From assembly GCA_963848295.1 (NCBI GenBank), contig CAWKDB010000010.1, positions 2,816,001 through 2,880,000 of the forward strand: a stretch of DNA of 64,000 nt, given 5' to 3'. The notes beneath the pieces are model-generated. The model saw only the letters and a list, made by a program, of their open reading frames with translations. It was not told the origin of the DNA and did not search any database. Every line of letters begins with the position of its first letter. Within the stretch, counting starts at the first letter, position 1. The stretch is from an uncultured delta proteobacterium (lineage in GTDB: Bacteria > Myxococcota_A > Polyangia > Haliangiales > Haliangiaceae). Below, one piece after another: positions 15,992-55,618 of this stretch. Position numbers and translations under genes: made by a program.

Positions 15992-18118
15992 CTAGCGCTT
16001 CGACTTGAGGCGCGATTCGAGGATCCGGACCTCCGCCTTCGCGTCGGCGTGGTGCGGCTTGTCCGCGAGGACGCGCTGGAAGATCTCGAGCGCTTCGCGT
16101 TCGCGGCCGAGCATGCGCTCGACTCGGCCGAGGTAGAACCGCGCGGTCACCGACTTCTCTGATTGCGCGGCGGCCTTCGACAGTTGGCCGCGCGTCGCGG
16201 CGGCGACCGCCATCTTGTCCGGCGCGGCGGCGAACTTCGACCACGCGAGCAGGGCGGTGTACTCGGACTCGTTCGGCTGGAGCTCGACCGCGGTCGTGAA
16301 CTCGGCGATCGCGGTGGTGAGCTGATCGCGGCGCAACGCCATCTCGCCGAGCTTGAACGCCTCTTCCGCGCGCATCACGCGCATCGCGAGTTGGTCGGCC
16401 TTGGCGTCCTCGGCGCGCACCGCCGCCTCGCCACCTCGCCGCAGCACGGTGACGTAGTCCGAGCGGCGCTGCGGATCGCTCAGGGTCGCGAACGCCGTGT
16501 TGATCGCCGCGAACAAGCGCTGTGCATCGCGGCGAGCATCGGGAATGCCGAGCGCCGCCAGCCGATCCGGGTGGAGCTTGCGCGCGAGCGTGAAGTACGC
16601 GCCGCGCACCGCGTCGGGCGCGCTGTCGACCGGCACCCCGAGCAGCGTGAAATAATCGGCTCCGCTATCGAGCCGCGGCACGAGCTCGACGATCAGCGCT
16701 TCGGTCTCGCGCGTCGCCGCACTATCGCGGCGGACCCGCGTGATCGGCGGTTGGCTCGACGAGCGCTGCGGTCGCGGCTTCGCCATCTGAGTCGGCGGCG
16801 CGCCACTCGGTGGGCGCAACCGCACGACGTCGTCACCGGTCGGCGTCGTCGCGAACGGGGGCGGTGTCGTGGTCCGCGACGCGGGTGGTCCGGTCAGCGC
16901 CCGGCCCATCGGCGGCGGCGTCGTCGTGCGCGACACCGATGGCGGGGTTGACGTCCGGCTGATCGGCGGCGGCGTCATCGTCCGCGAGACGGGCGGCGCG
17001 GTTGGCGTCCGGCCGATCGGCGGCGGTGTGGTCGTGCGCGACGGGGTCGGCGGGTTGTCGCGGCTCGACGCGCGGCTCATCACCGGCCGATCACCGGTCG
17101 CGGTACGCGCTTGCGTCGCCGGCGCGGTCGACCCGCTGGGCGCGCGCGGGGCCGCCGTCGCACCGCTGGTCGGGCTCGAGCCGCGAGGCCGCGGTACCGC
17201 CGTCGCACCGCTCGTCGGGCTCGAGCCGCGAGGCTGCCGTACCGCCGTCGCACCGCTCGTCGGGCTCGAGCCGCGCATCGCCACGGGAGCTCCGGTCGAC
17301 GCGCGGTCGCGCTGTAGCGTCGCACCGTCGGTCGGCTGATCGATCGGCGGTCGCGACGGCGGCTTGCGCAGCCGCGGGATCGCGGTCGTCGTGCGATTGA
17401 CCGGCTCGGTCGCGTCCGCCGCGCCGCACGACACCAGCGAGTACGCGATCGCGCGAATCGTGCGCCCGTCGACTTCGGGGTGCGCGAGCAGGACCTCGGC
17501 CAGATTCGCACCGTCGCGCAGCGCGACGACGACCGCTCGGTCGGTCTCGGAGAACCCGAACAGCGCGAGGTCGGGCGTCGCCTCCGGTCGGAGCTTGAAG
17601 TAGCCGCCCATCTGGCCGAGCTCGAGCGATAGGCGTTCTTCGACCAGGTTGTTGACCGCGCCGAGGTAGACGATCGTGCGGATATCGAGCTCGCCGCCGG
17701 AGATGATCGGCAAGGCGACCTGATCGTCGACGACAAACTCGCCGCGCTCGACCGAGAACGTGCGAGCCGCGCGCTGCGCATTGACGCGGCGGCGCAGCCG
17801 CTGGGCTTGCTCGGGCGATAGCTTCGCGAGCTCGGCGATCACGTCGACCTCGTCGCGGTCGGGCGCCGTCGCGAGCCGGCGCGCGATCTCGCCGACCTGG
17901 CTGGACGACACGAGGTGGCTGGTCAACGCGACGCGCGCCGCGGAATCACTCGCGAGTGGCGACGATGCACCGACGACGATGCCGCGGGCAAACGCGACGC
18001 AGTACGCCTTGCCGTCGCTGGTCAGCGTCAGCTGGCCCGACAACCCGCGCAGCGCGAGCGCACCGAGCGTGCGGCCCCACGGCCGGTCCGAGACGTTGCC
18101 GCGCGCGAGCTCGGTCAT
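15992..18118 (-). CDS. DUF4388-like N-terminus / Pro-Thr-rich linker / DnaJ domain / TPR protein
   Basis: J-domain DYFTLLGV...AYFTLARKLHPD...INTAFATLSDPQRRSDY, C-terminal TPRs; start at ATG 18118. Confidence 0.88.
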   Translation of the reverse strand: MTELARGNVSDRPWGRTLGALALRGLSGQLTLTSDGKAYCVAFARGIVVGASSPLASDSAARVALTSHLVSSSQVGEIARRLATAPDRDEVDVIAELAKLSPEQAQRLRRRVNAQRAARTFSVERGEFVVDDQVALPIISGGELDIRTIVYLGAVNNLVEERLSLELGQMGGYFKLRPEATPDLALFGFSETDRAVVVALRDGANLAEVLLAHPEVDGRTIRAIAYSLVSCGAADATEPVNRTTTAIPRLRKPPSRPPIDQPTDGATLQRDRASTGAPVAMRGSSPTSGATAVRQPRGSSPTSGATAVPRPRGSSPTSGATAAPRAPSGSTAPATQARTATGDRPVMSRASSRDNPPTPSRTTTPPPIGRTPTAPPVSRTMTPPPISRTSTPPSVSRTTTPPPMGRALTGPPASRTTTPPPFATTPTGDDVVRLRPPSGAPPTQMAKPRPQRSSSQPPITRVRRDSAATRETEALIVELVPRLDSGADYFTLLGVPVDSAPDAVRGAYFTLARKLHPDRLAALGIPDARRDAQRLFAAINTAFATLSDPQRRSDYVTVLRRGGEAAVRAEDAKADQLAMRVMRAEEAFKLGEMALRRDQLTTAIAEFTTAVELQPNESEYTALLAWSKFAAAPDKMAVAAATRGQLSKAAAQSEKSVTARFYLGRVERMLGREREALEIFQRVLADKPHHADAKAEVRILESRLKSKR

Positions 18119-25929: not shown

Positions 25930-26002
25930 GGGGTCATAGCTCAGCTGGGAGAGCGCTAGAATCGCACTCTAGAGGTCAGGGGTTCGATCCCCCTTGGCTC
26001 CA
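25930..26002 (+). tRNA. tRNA-Ala (anticodon CGC), CCA not encoded
   Basis: Cloverleaf: acceptor GGGGTCA/TGGCTCC with G3:U70, D-arm TAGCTCAGCTGGGAGAGC, anticodon stem CTAGA-ATCGCAC-TCTAG, T-loop GGTTCGATCC; TTGACA at 25887 upstream. Confidence 0.96.
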
Positions 26003-26012
26003 CGGAAAACCG

Positions 26013-26050
26013 AAGAGGTCTCGCAGCGATGCGAGGCCTTCTTTGTTTTC
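26013..26050 (+). terminator. Intrinsic terminator, repeated after every tRNA-3' copy
   Basis: GAAGAGGTCTCGCA-GCGA-TGCGAGGCCTTC-TTTGTTTT hairpin plus U tract; also at about 27140, 28371 and 29325. Confidence 0.85.
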
Positions 26051-26280
26051 GGCGTGCGGCAAGCGTTCTAGAGGCTGCTCTCGCACGCGTCGTCATTCCG
26101 TTCGCTTACGCAGTCCCGACCCTACGCAAACCGCTTCCAATCGTTCCGCAAAAACATTCTAGAGGTCCCGTCGTCACGTCGTCGCGTCCTGAACCCTTCT
26201 GGCTGCGTCGTTCCCGCGTGATAGCGTTCATTGTGGCAGCCGACGCTTCGAAAGTATCTCCAGCCGAGATCGCTGCACTC

Positions 26281-26445
26281 ATGGTGCACCTCGATCCAGA
26301 GGTCCGCGACGCCATCGCCGATGTCGATCGAACGCTCATCGCGCTTGCGCTCGCGCAATCCCCCTGGGACCGGCTGAGGTCGGCATCTCGAATGGCGCAA
26401 GCCCTCGTCAGGATCCGGGATGGTGCCGCACCCCAAGGTCACTGA
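26281..26445 (+). CDS. Small partner protein upstream of the nucleotidyltransferase
   Basis: MVHLDPEVRDAIADVDRTLIALALAQSPWDRLRSA; overlaps the MNT gene; start uncertain (GTG alternatives at about 26218-26233). Confidence 0.6.
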   Translation: MVHLDPEVRDAIADVDRTLIALALAQSPWDRLRSASRMAQALVRIRDGAAPQGH

Positions 26446-26920
26446 CCTTCCCGCGCTGCTCGCGAAGCTGTGCGACGCCGGGATCGAGTTCATCATCGTC
26501 GGTGGCGCCGCCTGCGTGATCCAAGGCGCGCCGATCACGACCAACGATCTCGATATCGTCCATCAGAGGACGCCGGAGAACATCGAGCGGCTTCTCGCAG
26601 TCTTGCTCGAGCTCGATGCAACGATGCGCTACGACTTTGCGAACAGACGACTCCGCCCAACGACAGAGCTGTTAGCAGGCAGAGGACACCTGAACCTTTC
26701 CACCTCGCTCGGTCCGCTCGATCCGCTTTGCGAGCTCGACGGCCTGGGGTTCGACGAGTTGTTGGCCCATAGCCAGTCGGTGATCGATGAGGGGCGATTG
26801 CTTCGCGTACTGGACCTGCCGACGCTTATCACTGTGAAGACAAAGGCCGGACGACCGAAGGATCGACTCGTGCTCCCGATCCTGATCGCGACCCTCGAGG
26901 AGCGCGATAAGGCGAAGTGA
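26420..26920 (+). CDS. Nucleotidyltransferase (MNT/AbiEii-like), putative TA component
   Basis: FIIVGGAA...TTNDLDI catalytic motif; LITVKTKAGRPKD C-terminal motif. Confidence 0.85.
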   Translation: MVPHPKVTDLPALLAKLCDAGIEFIIVGGAACVIQGAPITTNDLDIVHQRTPENIERLLAVLLELDATMRYDFANRRLRPTTELLAGRGHLNLSTSLGPLDPLCELDGLGFDELLAHSQSVIDEGRLLRVLDLPTLITVKTKAGRPKDRLVLPILIATLEERDKAK

Positions 26921-27084
26921 TTGACGGAACCCGGCGGTCGCGCGTGTTGCCCGGCGCGACGCCGACTCAACGCCAACGACCGCACGCAGTTGTTGGCCGT
27001 CACCGTTCCGCAAATTCGTCGACGGAGATCCGCGCACTGCGAAACGTTTCCCACTGGAACCTCGCGAGATTCCTCGGCGCGCCC

Positions 27085-27179
27085 AGAATCGCACTCTAGA
27101 GGTCAGGGGTTCGATCCCCCTTGGCTCCACGGAAAACCGAAGAGGTCTCGCAGCGATGCGAGGCCTTCTTTCGTTTCGG
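27085..27179 (+). repeat. tRNA-Ala 3' fragment + terminator, copy 2 (att-like junction)
   Basis: AGAATCGCACTCTAGAGGTCAGGGGTTCGATCCCCCTTGGCTCCA identical to 25958-26002. Confidence 0.97.
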
Positions 27180-27351
27180 ACGCACGCGAATCGTTCCGCA
27201 AGCCGTTCTAGAGGTCTGCTCTCGCACGCAGTGTCATTCCGTTCGCTTACGCAATTCCGGCCCACCCGAAGCGCTTCCAATCGTTCCGCAAAGCATTCTA
27301 GAGGTCCCGTCGATCGGTCGGTCACGTCGCGCGTCCGAATGCCACGCAGCG

Positions 27352-27568
27352 CTATCGAAAGCGCCAAGGCTCGGGACGAAGACGTGCCAGCGAACGCGCG
27401 ACGGCCGCCGGGTCGATCTCGACGCGCTCCTTCATCAATCGGAACAAGGCCTCGGCCACCACAGACGCGATCGCGTGGATGCCCGCAACACATCGAGCAG
27501 ATCGAGCCACCGAGCGCAGGGCAACTGCGCTTGCCTTTGCGTTGTTTGCAGAAGCTGCATACCGCCAC
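27352..27568 (-). pseudogene. Truncated Cys-rich zinc-binding protein
   Basis: MAVCSFCKQRKGKRSCPALGGSICSMCCG then loss of frame. Confidence 0.45.
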
Positions 27569-27660
27569 CGCGACCTTTCGTAGCCCGCTAGCATCTGCGA
27601 CGCAATGCCTGGCAGTCGTTCCGCAGGATCCTCGACCAAGACTCGGCGTTGGGGACCTTG

Positions 27661-27963
27661 CTACACGTCGGGGCTGCGGCCCGCGAGCGCATTCCAGACG
27701 AGCAACACCTCGATGTCACCAGCTACTTCGTCAACTCGGTAGTAGACGTGGTTGCGCGTCTTCGGCATGAGGATTCGCCAAACGATCCGGCCGCCACGCG
27801 CTGCGTACTGCTGACGCTCCGCGTCCGCACCACCGCGCAGCTTGGTCACGATCGCGGACAGCTCTTCGACGAATACGCCCGGAGCCTTTTCACGATGCTG
27901 CTCCCACCACGTTCGCTTCTCTCGGACCGAGAGCCGAGCCTCCGGCGTGAAGCGAACTCTCAC
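27661..27963 (-). CDS. RelE/ParE family toxin
   Basis: MRVRFTPEAR...WRILMPKTRNHVYYRVD...IEVLLVWNA; 100 aa; GTGA-coupled to the upstream antitoxin. Confidence 0.85.
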   Translation of the reverse strand: MRVRFTPEARLSVREKRTWWEQHREKAPGVFVEELSAIVTKLRGGADAERQQYAARGGRIVWRILMPKTRNHVYYRVDEVAGDIEVLLVWNALAGRSPDV

Positions 27964-28190
27964 TGATGACGAAGCTCGTCCAGAACGTCGTCAGCGTCCA
28001 CCAACTCGCCAGCATCTGCCTGTGCGGCGCTTCGTTCGAGCGCTTGTTCGAGCGCCGCGCGCTCATCGTTGCTCATGTTGTCAGCCGCCGCGTCGTAGAG
28101 GTACACGCGAACCTCAGCGCCGTCGGGTAGATCGACCGGCTCGTCAACGACGATCTTTCCGTTCACAACATGAGCTCGGAGCGCGGTCAC
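27960..28190 (-). CDS. Antitoxin (AF2212/DUF104-like N-terminus, acidic C-terminus)
   Basis: GTG start: TALRAHVVNGKIVVDEPVDLPDGAEVRV...DADDVLDELR. Confidence 0.8.
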   Translation of the reverse strand: MTALRAHVVNGKIVVDEPVDLPDGAEVRVYLYDAAADNMSNDERAALEQALERSAAQADAGELVDADDVLDELRHQ

Positions 28191-28315
28191 GAGATCAAGA
28201 TACACGAGCCGAGTCGGTTCGCGTCCGTTCCGCAACTTCTCCCAGAACATCCAAGACGTTGCACCGATTGCGGAATGTTCTGCTCCTCAATTCCGCGGGA
28301 TTCCTCGGCGCGCCG

Positions 28316-28410
28316 AGAATCGCACTCTAGAGGTCAGGGGTTCGATCCCCCTTGGCTCCACGGAAAACCGAAGAGGTCTCGCAGCGATGCGAGGCCTTCT
28401 TTGTTTTCGG
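28316..28410 (+). repeat. tRNA-Ala 3' fragment + terminator, copy 3
   Basis: Identical 45-nt core plus terminator. Confidence 0.97.
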
Positions 28411-28429
28411 ATCGTTCCCCAGCTTCGCA

Positions 28430-28810
28430 TCACGGCCGAACGAGCTCCACATCGAGGTCGGCCGCGCGAGCAAGCGGCGCTAGGTCCTCTGGATCAGACG
28501 TGATGATTCGATCGCCATCGCTCGCCAACAGGACCAGCGCAGCGTCAATGACATCATCTTGTTTTGCTCGGGCCAACAGCTCGCCAGCTGCGCGGCCGAG
28601 CACCGCATCCAGCCGCCGTATGTCGATCACGTCGAATGCCCGCGCAAGCAGCGCCTGACGGGGCCCCCGCCCGCGCCACGCCTGACCGACGATCCCGCCG
28701 TGAGACAACGGTGCCTCGCGGGACTGCAGAGCTTGCTTTAGACGCTGCCACATCGCGCGATCATTCCGTTCGAGCGCTATCAGCGCACCGGTATCAAAGA
28801 TCAGCCTCAT
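28430..28810 (-). CDS. PIN-domain (VapC-like) toxin
   Basis: LIFDTGALIA, DVIDAALV, IITSDPEDL acidic PIN motifs. Confidence 0.9.
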   Translation of the reverse strand: MRLIFDTGALIALERNDRAMWQRLKQALQSREAPLSHGGIVGQAWRGRGPRQALLARAFDVIDIRRLDAVLGRAAGELLARAKQDDVIDAALVLLASDGDRIITSDPEDLAPLARAADLDVELVRP

Positions 28811-29115
28811 GCCACCTTCGAACGCCGCTTGCTTGTGCGGTTCTTAAGTGGGCCCCGGATCACGTTTGCCTTGCGCCGATCCTCGCGTTCACGTGCCGCG
28901 AGCTCGGATGGTGTGATCTCTCCATACTCAGCCTCATAGCCGGCGAGCAGGTCGGACAGGGCGGCGAGGCGGCGCTCTTTGAGCACATGCTCTGCAACGG
29001 CGAGATTGATCCAAGCACTCAACGAATCCGCCCGACCCGCTGCAATGGCGGCGTTGGCGGCCTCGACCAGGGCGCGGTCAAGGGTGACGGTAACCCGCTC
29101 TTTCGTCTCACTCAT
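28807..29115 (-). CDS. Ribbon-helix-helix antitoxin
   Basis: MSETKERVTVTLDRALVE...SLSAWINLAV...YEAEYGEIT; ATGA-coupled to the PIN gene. Confidence 0.85.
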   Translation of the reverse strand: MSETKERVTVTLDRALVEAANAAIAAGRADSLSAWINLAVAEHVLKERRLAALSDLLAGYEAEYGEITPSELAAREREDRRKANVIRGPLKNRTSKRRSKVA

Positions 29116-29137
29116 ACTATTATCATACCATCGTATG
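29113..29137 (-). promoter_or_regulatory. Leaderless promoter and operator of the VapBC pair
   Basis: Minus strand TGGTATGATAATAGT-ATG; palindrome CATAC-CATC-GTATG and a repeated CATAC. Confidence 0.6.
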
Positions 29138-29269
29138 CGCAACGTCAGGACGCCGATCGAGCCCGGCAAATGCGTTGTCCCACCTAACCGTTCCGCAGAT
29201 TCCTCGTCGGAGACTCGGCGTTGCGGAACGCTCGTGGCCCTCAACCCCGCGGGATCCCTCGGTGCGCCC

Positions 29270-29364
29270 AGAATCGCACTCTAGAGGTCAGGGGTTCGAT
29301 CCCCCTTGGCTCCACCAGGAAACGAAGAGGTCTCGCAGCGATGCGAGGCCTTCTTTCGTTTCGG
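29270..29364 (+). repeat. tRNA-Ala 3' fragment + CCA + terminator, copy 4 (attR-like)
   Basis: Same core, and the only copy followed by CCA (29315-29317). Confidence 0.97.
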
Positions 29365-29437
29365 CCTGGGCGCAAAACCGGGTGCGGAACGATCGCGTCA
29401 GGCAATTAGTCGTTTCGATCTCGGTCCACGAGAAGCC

Positions 29438-54013: not shown

Positions 54014-55618
54014 ATGCGCTCGCAAGGTTCGACCCGCGCGACCGGCGTCGTATACACGCCGCGCGAGGTCGCCGAGCCGATGGTGCAGCGCGCGCTCGCG
54101 CCGCTGCTCGCGCATCGCGCGCCCGCGTCGCTGCGCGTGTGCGACCCCGCGATCGGCGAAGGCGCGTTCCTGGTCGAGGTGATGCGCCTGCTCTGCGCAG
54201 CCGGTGGCGAGCCTCGCGACATCGCGGCGCGCTGCTTGTTCGGCGTCGATATCGATGCGCGTGCGGTCGCCGCGGCCCGGACCGCGATCGAGGCGTTCGT
54301 CGGCGCGCCGGTGCCCGAGCTGCGCCAACATCTCCGCGTCGCCGATGCGCTGGCCGACCCGTGGCCGGATCGCGGATTCGATGCGGTCGTCGGCAACCCG
54401 CCGTACGTGCGGCAGGAGCTGTTCGCCGGTCGCAAGCGCGAGCTCGGGCAATTCGCGGTGTTCGACGGCGCGGCGGATCTCTACGTCTACTTCGTCGAGC
54501 TCGCGCATTGCTTGCTCGCGCCCGGCGGCCGGTATTGCCTCGTGATGCCGAACAAGTGGCTGACCGCCGCATACGGCCGGTCGCTGCGCGAGTTCCTCGC
54601 GCGCGCCGCGAGCCTCGAAGGGCTCGTCGATTTCGGGCGAGCGCTGCCGCTGTTCGGCGATGCCGATGCGTTCCCGTGCATCGCGTGGGGCGAGGTCGGC
54701 CGCGAGCGATCAGGTCCGGTTCGCGCGGCGCGCGCGGCGACGAGCGACGTCGCGGTTGAGCTGGCGACGACCCATGACCTCGCGCGCGACCGCTGGAGCT
54801 CGGAGCCGTGGCACGTCGATGCGCCGGCAGATGCGGCGTTGATCGATCGACTCGCGGCTCGTTGGCCCCGGTTCGGCGACGTGATCGGCAAGCCGTCGCG
54901 CGGCGTCGTCACCGGGTGCAATCGCGCGTTCGTGATCGATGCCGCGACGCGCGCCCGCCTCGTCACCGCCGAGCCCGCCGCCGCAGTGCTGATCCGACCG
55001 CTCGTCAAGGGCCGCGACGTGCGGCGCTGGCGGACCGTCCGAGGCGATCGATACATCGTGCTCGTCGACCGCGGCACCTCGCTCGCGCGGCTCCCAGGCG
55101 TGCTCGCCCACCTCGCGCAGTTTCGCGCCGAGCTCGAGCCGCGCACACCGGGCGCTCGCGGTCCCGGTCGCAAGCCCGGGACCTATCGCTGGTACGAGCT
55201 GCAAGATCCGGTCGGTGCCCTCGCGAAGTCGCGCGCGCCGCGCCTGCTCTATCAGGACATCCAGACGCATCCCGTGTGCAGCCTCGATCGCACCGGCGCG
55301 CTCGTCCCCGACACGACGGTGTGGAGCCTACCGACCGATGATCGCGTCGCGCTCGCGGTGTTGAACTCGACGCTCTACGGCTGGTACGCGCGGCGGCGCT
55401 TCCCACCCGCGCTCAATGGCGCCGTGCGACCGAAGGCTGCATACCTCGCGGCGTTCCCGCTCGCGCGTCCGAGCGCCGCGGCGCGCAGGACGATCGAGCT
55501 CCTGGTGGCGACCCGATTGCGCGAGGCCAGCGCCGAGCTCGATCGCGAGCTCGATCGCGCGGTCTGCGATCTCTACGAGCTCGACCGCGCCGAGCGCGAG
55601 CTGTTAGCCGCCACGTAG
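54014..55618 (+). CDS. N6-adenine DNA methyltransferase, TaqI/Eco57I-like (gamma order), orphan
   Basis: YTP, DPAIGEGAFL, GNPPY, DLYVYF, TaqI-C-like target recognition region. Confidence 0.9.
   Translation: MRSQGSTRATGVVYTPREVAEPMVQRALAPLLAHRAPASLRVCDPAIGEGAFLVEVMRLLCAAGGEPRDIAARCLFGVDIDARAVAAARTAIEAFVGAPVPELRQHLRVADALADPWPDRGFDAVVGNPPYVRQELFAGRKRELGQFAVFDGAADLYVYFVELAHCLLAPGGRYCLVMPNKWLTAAYGRSLREFLARAASLEGLVDFGRALPLFGDADAFPCIAWGEVGRERSGPVRAARAATSDVAVELATTHDLARDRWSSEPWHVDAPADAALIDRLAARWPRFGDVIGKPSRGVVTGCNRAFVIDAATRARLVTAEPAAAVLIRPLVKGRDVRRWRTVRGDRYIVLVDRGTSLARLPGVLAHLAQFRAELEPRTPGARGPGRKPGTYRWYELQDPVGALAKSRAPRLLYQDIQTHPVCSLDRTGALVPDTTVWSLPTDDRVALAVLNSTLYGWYARRRFPPALNGAVRPKAAYLAAFPLARPSAAARRTIELLVATRLREASAELDRELDRAVCDLYELDRAERELLAAT

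Follow-up and report, generated by a model that had tools for sequence, protein, structure and literature searches.

The 64-kb window analysed here (64,000 nucleotides of G000, the 85% complete assembly of an uncultured delta proteobacterium; positions refer to the window unless a contig is named) contains an intact tRNA-Ala(CGC) gene (25930..26003, plus strand) followed by an array of three small units, and the repeats delimiting these units, which we interpret as probable attachment (att) sites of a tyrosine integrase, are the subject of this report. The tRNA gene was called by ARAGORN. Its 3' half (46 bp), starting at 25958 in the intact gene, is repeated at 27085, 28316 and 29270, and copies 2-4 are identical at 46/46 bases. 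The units between these cores measure 1127, 1231 and 954 bp and have a GC content of about 62%, compared with 67-71% in the flanks. The 7-nt anticodon loop (25961-25967) is the presumed strand-exchange overlap, judging from where the identity of the fragments to the tRNA begins. A terminator-like hairpin lies 3' of core 1 (26015..26050, plus strand) and the same hairpin follows all four cores: core copy 2 (27085..27177) consists of the tRNA 3' half (27085-27130) and the terminator (27142-27177), core copy 3 with its terminator occupies 28316..28408, and core copy 4, with CCA at its end, occupies 29270..29362 together with its terminator, all on the plus strand. An earlier note on this DNA had placed the beginning of tRNA identity 3 nt before the 7-nt loop; this applies to the window, but in relatives identity often begins only at the loop, and across junctions it starts at the loop or 1-3 nt before it.

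A left arm on the plus strand precedes each of the displaced cores. That of copy 2 (27003..27087) is composed of a P1 site (27003-27012), a palindrome (about 27014-27027), an inverted P2 site with one mismatch (27038-27046) and a conserved box (27057-27071), after which the left core half-site follows. In the left arm of copy 4 (29188..29272), P1 is found at 29188-29197, the palindrome at about 29199-29213, P2 at 29222-29230 and the box at 29242-29256. The left arm of copy 3 (28225..28318; P1 28225-28234, P2 28269-28277, box 28288-28302) belongs to a long-spacing class (+9 bp). Every coordinate previously given for CCGTTCCGCA (27003, 28225 and 29188, i.e. 82, 91 and 82 bp before the core), for its imperfect inverse (27038, 28269 and 29222, i.e. 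47, 47 and 48 bp before the core) and for TCGTTCCGCA (26141, 27191 and 27281, and inverted at 29383) proved right. The core-adjacent block beginning with CGCG(A/G)GAT was likewise found, at 27063, 28294 and 29248, but it is not a single element: its left part corresponds to the box conserved throughout the genus, and the rest, a spacer plus a degenerate left core half-site, is common mainly within this lineage. Overlooked by the earlier note were a motif copy at 27616, a CCCCA variant at 28412 and the conserved palindrome that separates the two upstream sites, as well as additional core half-sites TCTAGAGG (26067, 26158, 27207 and 27297).

The right ends of units 1 and 2 are 87% identical and represent a 90-bp double form, also seen in genome G094, of what is called here the cassette-type end. 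That of unit 2 (27189..27305, plus strand) has a 90-bp period and a layout matching G094, with arms at 27189-27200 and 27279-27290 and core half-sites at 27207-27215 and 27297-27305. The right end of unit 1 (26050..26170, plus strand) is damaged in that the first arm site is gone, leaving a degenerate core half-site at 26067, an arm site at 26141-26150 and a core half-site at 26158-26166. Unit 3 has one arm left, a lone variant of the CCCCA form (28411..28421, plus strand) that represents its truncated right end. Behind the last core, a single arm site (29383..29392, minus strand, +110 from the loop) is oriented as in integrase-bearing elements, and no integrase remnant was found beyond it. 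Each unit is bounded by two cores with arms, i.e. attL and attR are kept, some of them damaged. As a remnant left arm (27616..27655, plus strand; P1, palindrome and damaged P2) breaks off before box and core, unit 2 appears to be a fusion of two sub-units.

The units carry gene pairs which, on the basis of ESM Atlas leads and gene-pair context, are named here as toxin-antitoxin-like; no cargo protein had a match above cut-off in Pfam, NCBIfam or PHROGs. Unit 1 encodes a nucleotidyltransferase-like protein of 166 aa (26420..26920, plus strand; DUF6036, E 9e-4, below the curated cut-off) and, as the other member of a conserved gene pair, a small open reading frame (ORF) without family match (26218..26445, plus strand), which is its putative antitoxin. 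On the minus strand of unit 2, a RelE/ParE-like toxin of 100 aa (27661..27963; ESM Atlas 0.95, ParE_toxin in 49% of the top cluster) is accompanied by a putative antitoxin of 76 aa (27960..28190), so named from its position and with no convincing family match. The minus strand of unit 3 encodes a PIN/VapC-like toxin of 126 aa (28430..28810; ESM Atlas 0.98, PIN in 11% of the top cluster) and, likewise judged from position and with no family match, a putative antitoxin of 102 aa (28807..29115).

The genus consensus of the arm motif is AAYCGTTCCSCA, and CGTTCCGCA is the variant of this genome. Nine copies of CGTTCCGCA were counted in the window, all within 3.3 kb (mean 1.25, maximum 5 in 100 shuffles). 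Genome-wide there are 109 copies, nine of them in 3.6 kb of array against 0.05 expected, and elsewhere a cluster of three exists only on contig C4; near the other tRNAs of G000 just scattered single matches were found within 1.5 kb. The motif is clustered and fixed in position, as opposed to occurring at background frequency without positional bias. Since the array copies are not mutually independent, the comparison of positions across genomes given below is a stronger test than these counts.

A local tandem duplication of the tRNA end, or an assembly artefact, with the upstream block as a decayed tRNA 5' half, would account for three fragments identical over 46 bp and for the loose alignment of the block upstream of the core to the tRNA 5' half. 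This is extremely improbable, as the cargo is different in every unit and as short-read contigs of run X1, which may be the source sample, match 26354-27094, 27101-27869 and 28990-29281 without differences, none of them spanning the whole array. Moreover, the architecture recurs in many genomes in which the block shows no such resemblance to the 5' half, and the derivation of the block from a decayed 5' half was rejected for this reason.

Two observations concern the surroundings of the array. An ARAGORN call of tRNA-Arg(GCG) at 17329-17405 looks doubtful. Furthermore, a gene at 54128-55564 is placed about 25 kb past the last core, and the variable region may therefore reach well past the array; in G005 this gene lies shortly downstream of tRNA-Ala(CGC), with the same placement in G003 and G021 by the look of their ORF starts.

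Left arms across the genus and the matching integrase

The core was found in 84 of the 91 genomes of the genus, many of which contain several copies. Positions were tallied in 74 distinct junctions after those classed as intact tRNA had been set aside; a few near-duplicates and variant tRNAs remain among the 74, and the tallies take in the unpublished genomes G010 and G075, on which alone no claim depends. Relative to the loop, P2 was located at -48/-49 in 44/74 junctions, strict P1 at -83 to -85 in 28/74 and at -92/-93 in 8/74, and the centre of the palindrome at -68 to -70 in 39/74, and with a stricter filter P2 was found at -48 to -50 in 44 of 63 junctions. Upstream of 91 intact tRNAs, P1 or P2 occurred at those positions in none. 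The 82/91/82 spacing in the window thus corresponds to two classes whose spacing differs by about one helical turn; the long class has 9 bp more and lacks the palindrome between P1 and P2. This palindrome is a candidate site for an excisionase or for a ribbon-helix-helix-like protein encoded before the integrase. The conserved box, at about -36, consists of CAA, some free bases and then CGCG-GAT or an AT-rich form. The AT-rich variants resemble the consensus of integration host factor (IHF), and G000 has two IHF/HU-family genes. The right core half is the tRNA stem, and the left core half is only partly symmetric to it (weak consensus).

In G016, G018, G026, G072 and others, a tyrosine recombinase of about 370-390 aa ends just behind tRNA-Ala(CGC), and 2-3 tandem TGSGGAACG-type repeats with an 11-bp period are situated between the two genes. 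The presence of the tandem motif at this place in many relatives supports the earlier proposal of an arm-binding site, and judging from sequence the motif very probably consists of arm sites. A match to this integrase family at E 1e-20 was obtained in 34/91 genomes, and at least two reverse arms at about +101/+112/+123 were present in 15 of the 22 junctions with a family match downstream. Close family members at tRNA-Gln (L052) and tRNA-Ala(GGC) (L055) retain the motif, and in G013, where tRNA-Ala(CGC) is the site of a different integrase, the repeat is another one; the motif thus follows the integrase clade and not the tRNA. Repeats unlike the motif also accompany distant members of the family (L117, L142). 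A further unit of 1.3 kb at tRNA-Ala(GGC), with a truncated family integrase (L031, G034:C146), has a left arm nearly identical to that of window copy 4.

Inverted pairs flanking a palindrome are also what an operator for a repressor, antitoxin or excisionase might look like, and a ribbon-helix-helix-like ORF (weak matches) overlaps the integrase start in G016. That the motif is such an operator and not an integrase arm is nevertheless very unlikely, because it is indifferent to cargo type, fixed relative to the core, arranged in tandem with an 11-bp period by the integrase 3' end and variable with the integrase clade.

The family keeps the R-K-H-R-H-Y catalytic set, and its best Foldseek match is full-length lambda integrase (1z1b, E 6e-8). 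The N-terminal domain consists of three strands plus a helix, which presumably fits the lambda topology. For the lambda-type class it is established that the N-terminal domain binds arm-type sites and the C-terminal domain core-type sites (PMC2951348).

The window yielded no match to PF00589 or to the hidden Markov model (HMM) of the integrase family, hence no tyrosine recombinase match, and a PF00589 search of the own genome and the family HMM revealed no integrase beside the array. The family member of G000, at C4:~316500-317570, is broken, with pieces across three frames and 40-52 gap openings against its six best intact homologues, compared with 13-29 among intact ones; the breaks may be an assembly error. 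It directly adjoins two tandem TGCGGAACGATT and a second RelE cassette copy (87%). With no intact copy found in an assembly that is 85% complete, the proposal of a single integrase for all cassettes is valid only at the level of the family. Viral contigs contained only distant relatives of the integrase (10 loci at 33-52%).

The broken gene is part of a low-GC island of about 25 kb (C4:293718-318473; L001, L002), which ends in a damaged tRNA-Ala core and at whose start lie a terminator, a cassette-type right end, the second RelE cassette (87%), a deleted core and the broken integrase; there is no tRNA at its head, and an insertion sequence, presumably IS21-like, abuts it. Other fragment repeats in G000 are five 17-bp copies of the tRNA-Leu(CAA) 3' end with a 188-bp period (C10:1111688-1112456) and four 19-bp copies of the tRNA-Leu(TAG) 3' end with a 140-bp period (C10:2152583-2153021), each directly behind the respective tRNA, as well as three tmRNA 3'-end fragments (C4:288404-289490), two of which bracket a small ORF pair with one ORF resembling the aspartyl-protease cargo of a G008 unit.

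The explanation which we consider probable as a whole is that the repeats are attachment sites of a lambda-type Kofleriaceae tyrosine integrase for which the 7-bp anticodon loop of tRNA-Ala(CGC) would be the site of crossover. AAYCGTTCCSCA would be the arm-type site, in a left arm ordered P1, palindrome, inverted P2, conserved box and core, and arm-bound integrase would be bridged to the core across the box, bent by a host protein, with strand exchange in the anticodon loop. An incoming circle would restore the tRNA 3' half and shift older units downstream. The units would supply sites and no enzyme, the integrase coming from elsewhere, either in trans or from a neighbouring autonomous element, and the three cassettes of about 1 kb would have been added successively at the tRNA and by now have partly decayed.

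A second right-end design in integrase-less units

The set of core-to-core units comprised 32 distinct units of 834 to 12401 bp, longer ones being beyond its view, and 28/32 were without a match to the family HMM, which in controls detects fragments and even the G013 enzyme. Tandem reverse arms are absent from many integrase-less units. In their place, an arm in forward orientation is situated near +104 and is followed by an additional, perfect core half-site TCTAGAGGT, whose position is either +114 to +119 or +122 to +126; a second forward arm 42-44 nt past the half-site, mirroring the P2-to-core distance, is frequently present as well. Downstream sequence of 300 nt or more was available for 157 junctions; the extra half-site was detected in 25 of them, 24 of which had no integrase match. 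Among these 24 ends the mirrored arm was found 41-46 nt further on in 14 and a forward arm just before the half-site in 18. The spacers of cassette-type ends diverge and the arm and half-site elements persist, and 13 complete units with this end contain no integrase remnant.

A pattern of this end free of tRNA sequence retrieved 29 metagenome stretches, including some near-duplicates and three unrelated matches; in 17 of the 23 that extend 130 nt or more upstream, a tRNA-Ala core precedes the match by 110-119 nt, and integrase matches were obtained in none of the 29. At L254 and L261 an unrelated tandem repeat had matched the pattern without tRNA sequence. The arm-plus-half-site pattern occurs four times in G000, three times in the array and once on C4, and viral contigs contained no cassette-type end. 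A loose version of the arm-plus-half-site pattern, run over the 91 genomes, gave considerable counts in the controls as well, and no evidence is drawn from it. Inversion of whole elements as the source of the cassette-type end was rejected, as the downstream cores keep normal left arms. We read the cassette-type right end as a putative alternative set of integrase-binding sites kept by selection.

A different role for the second core half-site would be that of the true crossover site, which together with a mirrored box and arm would form an inverted left end, cargo being cut, swapped and captured without a tRNA fragment. The unit would then be more like a Tn916-type element with unmatched overlaps or an integron attI site. 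From half-site to arm the spacing is 42-44 nt, the same as from P2 to core, and arm plus half-site are seen repeated in tandem, at 54-56 or 90 bp. Moreover, the window, G098 and G012 differ in the arms upstream of the half-site and yet have one and the same nucleotidyltransferase pair behind it, and in each array the tRNA 3' halves are those of the host allele, with cargo being shared across species. However, there is no matching overlap and no partner half-site to the left, the 32 units, of which the shortest has 834 bp, include no 'empty' product, in which some 110 bp would separate two tRNA 3' halves, and homology continues across the half-site in G067/G111 and G099/G098. This lesser rival explanation is in our judgement improbable.

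Sharing between species and origin of the units

Integrase-less DNA is shared between species to a degree exceeding that of their recA regions: 97.2% over 706 bp in G077/G098 (recA regions 83%), 91.5% over 2625 bp in G099/G098 (80%) and 91.6% over 3519 bp in G067/G111 (87% over 688 bp). Three loci, namely the window array, C4 and the metagenome locus L269, combine the RelE pair with a left arm of the long-spacing class. In other arrays, the cargo (56 selected ORFs) included ParE, addiction antitoxins, AbiEii-like proteins, a TOTE primase-helicase, a DUF790-helicase and metabolic genes. For the integrase-bearing elements, no conjugation or phage structural family was found among 19 ORFs of G026 compared with Pfam and 13 compared with PHROGs, which are a part of the ORFs called.

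It seems somewhat favoured that the units moved without an integrase of their own. A stronger version, put forward tentatively as a possibility that we hold a little short of even, is that they are non-autonomous 'integrase satellites': toxin-antitoxin, defence and immunity cassettes of 1-5 kb, never carrying an integrase, whose own right end (the mirror of the left arm plus a second core half-site) would have evolved to recruit a borrowed tRNA-Ala integrase, and which would spread between myxobacterial species and build up an integron-like array.

The main rival combines decay with mobilization in cis. Under plain decay of the type defined in PMC5704250, full integrase-bearing islands would have lost their middles, toxin-antitoxin pairs resisting loss, so that the arms would be fossils and movement would occur only in cis with an active neighbour. 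The arm motif is accounted for identically by this model. Integrase pieces, some truncated, are present in 4/32 units, a decayed integrase is found on C4 of G000, the window units are damaged and fused, and sharing between genomes is partial. On the other hand, deletion would leave the tandem reverse arms in place, whereas 24 integrase-less junctions have a different end; the half-site is perfect at two helically related distances (114-119 and 122-126) with divergent spacers between; and the 13 complete cassette-end units contain no integrase remnant. Plain decay is, in our estimation, rather unlikely.

Several points nevertheless weigh against the explanation that we prefer, i.e. integration of cassettes by a borrowed tRNA-Ala integrase. 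Shared DNA is often not core-to-core, G077/G098 having only cargo and left arm in common and G067/G111 only right end and cargo, and since the genomes are metagenome bins, mis-binning could mimic transfer. Many junctions have suffered deletion or fusion (27616-27655 in the window; also G098), damage affects all three window units, and decay of full elements does occur, as the integrase remnants in 4/32 units demonstrate. The three cargo pairs of the window are found also at loci without att features (L008, L009, L011-L015, L020), a comparison that leaves out the left flanks of L212, L010 and L016. As many loci are short, 'no integrase' may rest on only 300 nt. The mirrored arm is missing in 10/24 cassette-type ends, among them the two of the window, and the second half-site is not an obvious crossover site, because the seven bases preceding it mismatch the loop. 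One integrase-bearing locus (L062, G020:C129), the sole one, has an arm plus second core half-site. The N-terminal domain of the integrase taken alone gave no specific fold match, the top Z of 6.8 being to PH-like folds and generic. Finally, neither an excised circle nor an empty junction was found in the sequencing runs, of which contigs only were searched.

Two details may be added. The half-site of L062 lies inside the last codons of the integrase, replacing the usual C-terminal tail. Excision-like joints encountered in contigs of runs X2 and X3 were rejected as deriving from other organisms, and X1 shows none; no RNA data set was among the runs listed as carrying this DNA.

Comparison with known systems

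As in lambda-type att sites (lambda Int; KplE1 IntS, PMC2951348), a repeated arm motif is present on both sides of the core, a conserved box is fixed between arm and core, and a tRNA target is combined with a tyrosine integrase that is putatively of the hetero-bivalent type and for which lambda Int is the best fold match. The present sites differ in the motif itself, in the uncharacterized myxobacterial clade of the integrase, in the palindrome between P1 and P2 and in a second right-end design that is almost confined to integrase-less units.

Closest to the array are cis-mobilizable elements (CIMEs) and tandem accretion, in which integrase-less units likewise keep attL and attR and are stacked at one target; CIMEs are described in PMC5704250 as decayed integrative and conjugative or integrative and mobilizable elements (ICEs/IMEs). 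By contrast, most units here measure 0.8-5.5 kb, 28/32 are without integrase remnant, and many have a conserved end absent from integrase-bearing elements; this cassette-type end argues against simple decay from an ICE or IME. The tRNA islands of Islander (PMC4383910) share with the array an intact tRNA, displaced 3' fragments and an anticodon-loop subsite. Islander demands an integrase gene and at least 2 kb, and the integrase-less window units of 954-1231 bp would be filtered out. The tycheposon islands of Prochlorococcus (10.1101/2020.12.28.424599) likewise display successive integration at one tRNA, partial tRNA copies and remnants; those elements carry an integrase and often replication modules, whereas the units described here have neither. 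In a literature search that most subscription papers lay outside, neither this element nor an att end specific to cassettes was found described.

Integrase-less stacks at tRNA genes are usually dismissed as decayed islands and dropped by island finders. With the enzyme, its likely arm motif and minimal substrates of about 0.9 kb identified, it can be tested whether such a stack is a fossil or a working cassette system, and if the conserved end is specific to integrase-less units, it would be evidence of selection on a non-autonomous att design. Since the matching integrase has been identified and is intact in relatives, the integrase satellites, if true, would provide a directly testable model for integrase-less tRNA arrays. 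A tRNA-Ala integrase with mapped sites could, in addition, be a genetic tool for myxobacteria.

Integron cassette arrays, and clusters of attC sites lacking integron-integrases (CALINs), are one-way arrays of small modules rich in toxin-antitoxin and other conflict genes, the CALINs being without the enzyme gene. The array at tRNA-Ala(CGC) resembles them as a one-way array of small modules rich in toxin-antitoxin-like genes from which the enzyme gene is absent, and given the lack of a tyrosine recombinase match in the window it is not a complete integron. It differs in its boundaries, which are tRNA fragments and probable arm sites of a lambda-like integrase and not attC, and in that each unit carries its own tRNA 3' half and terminator.

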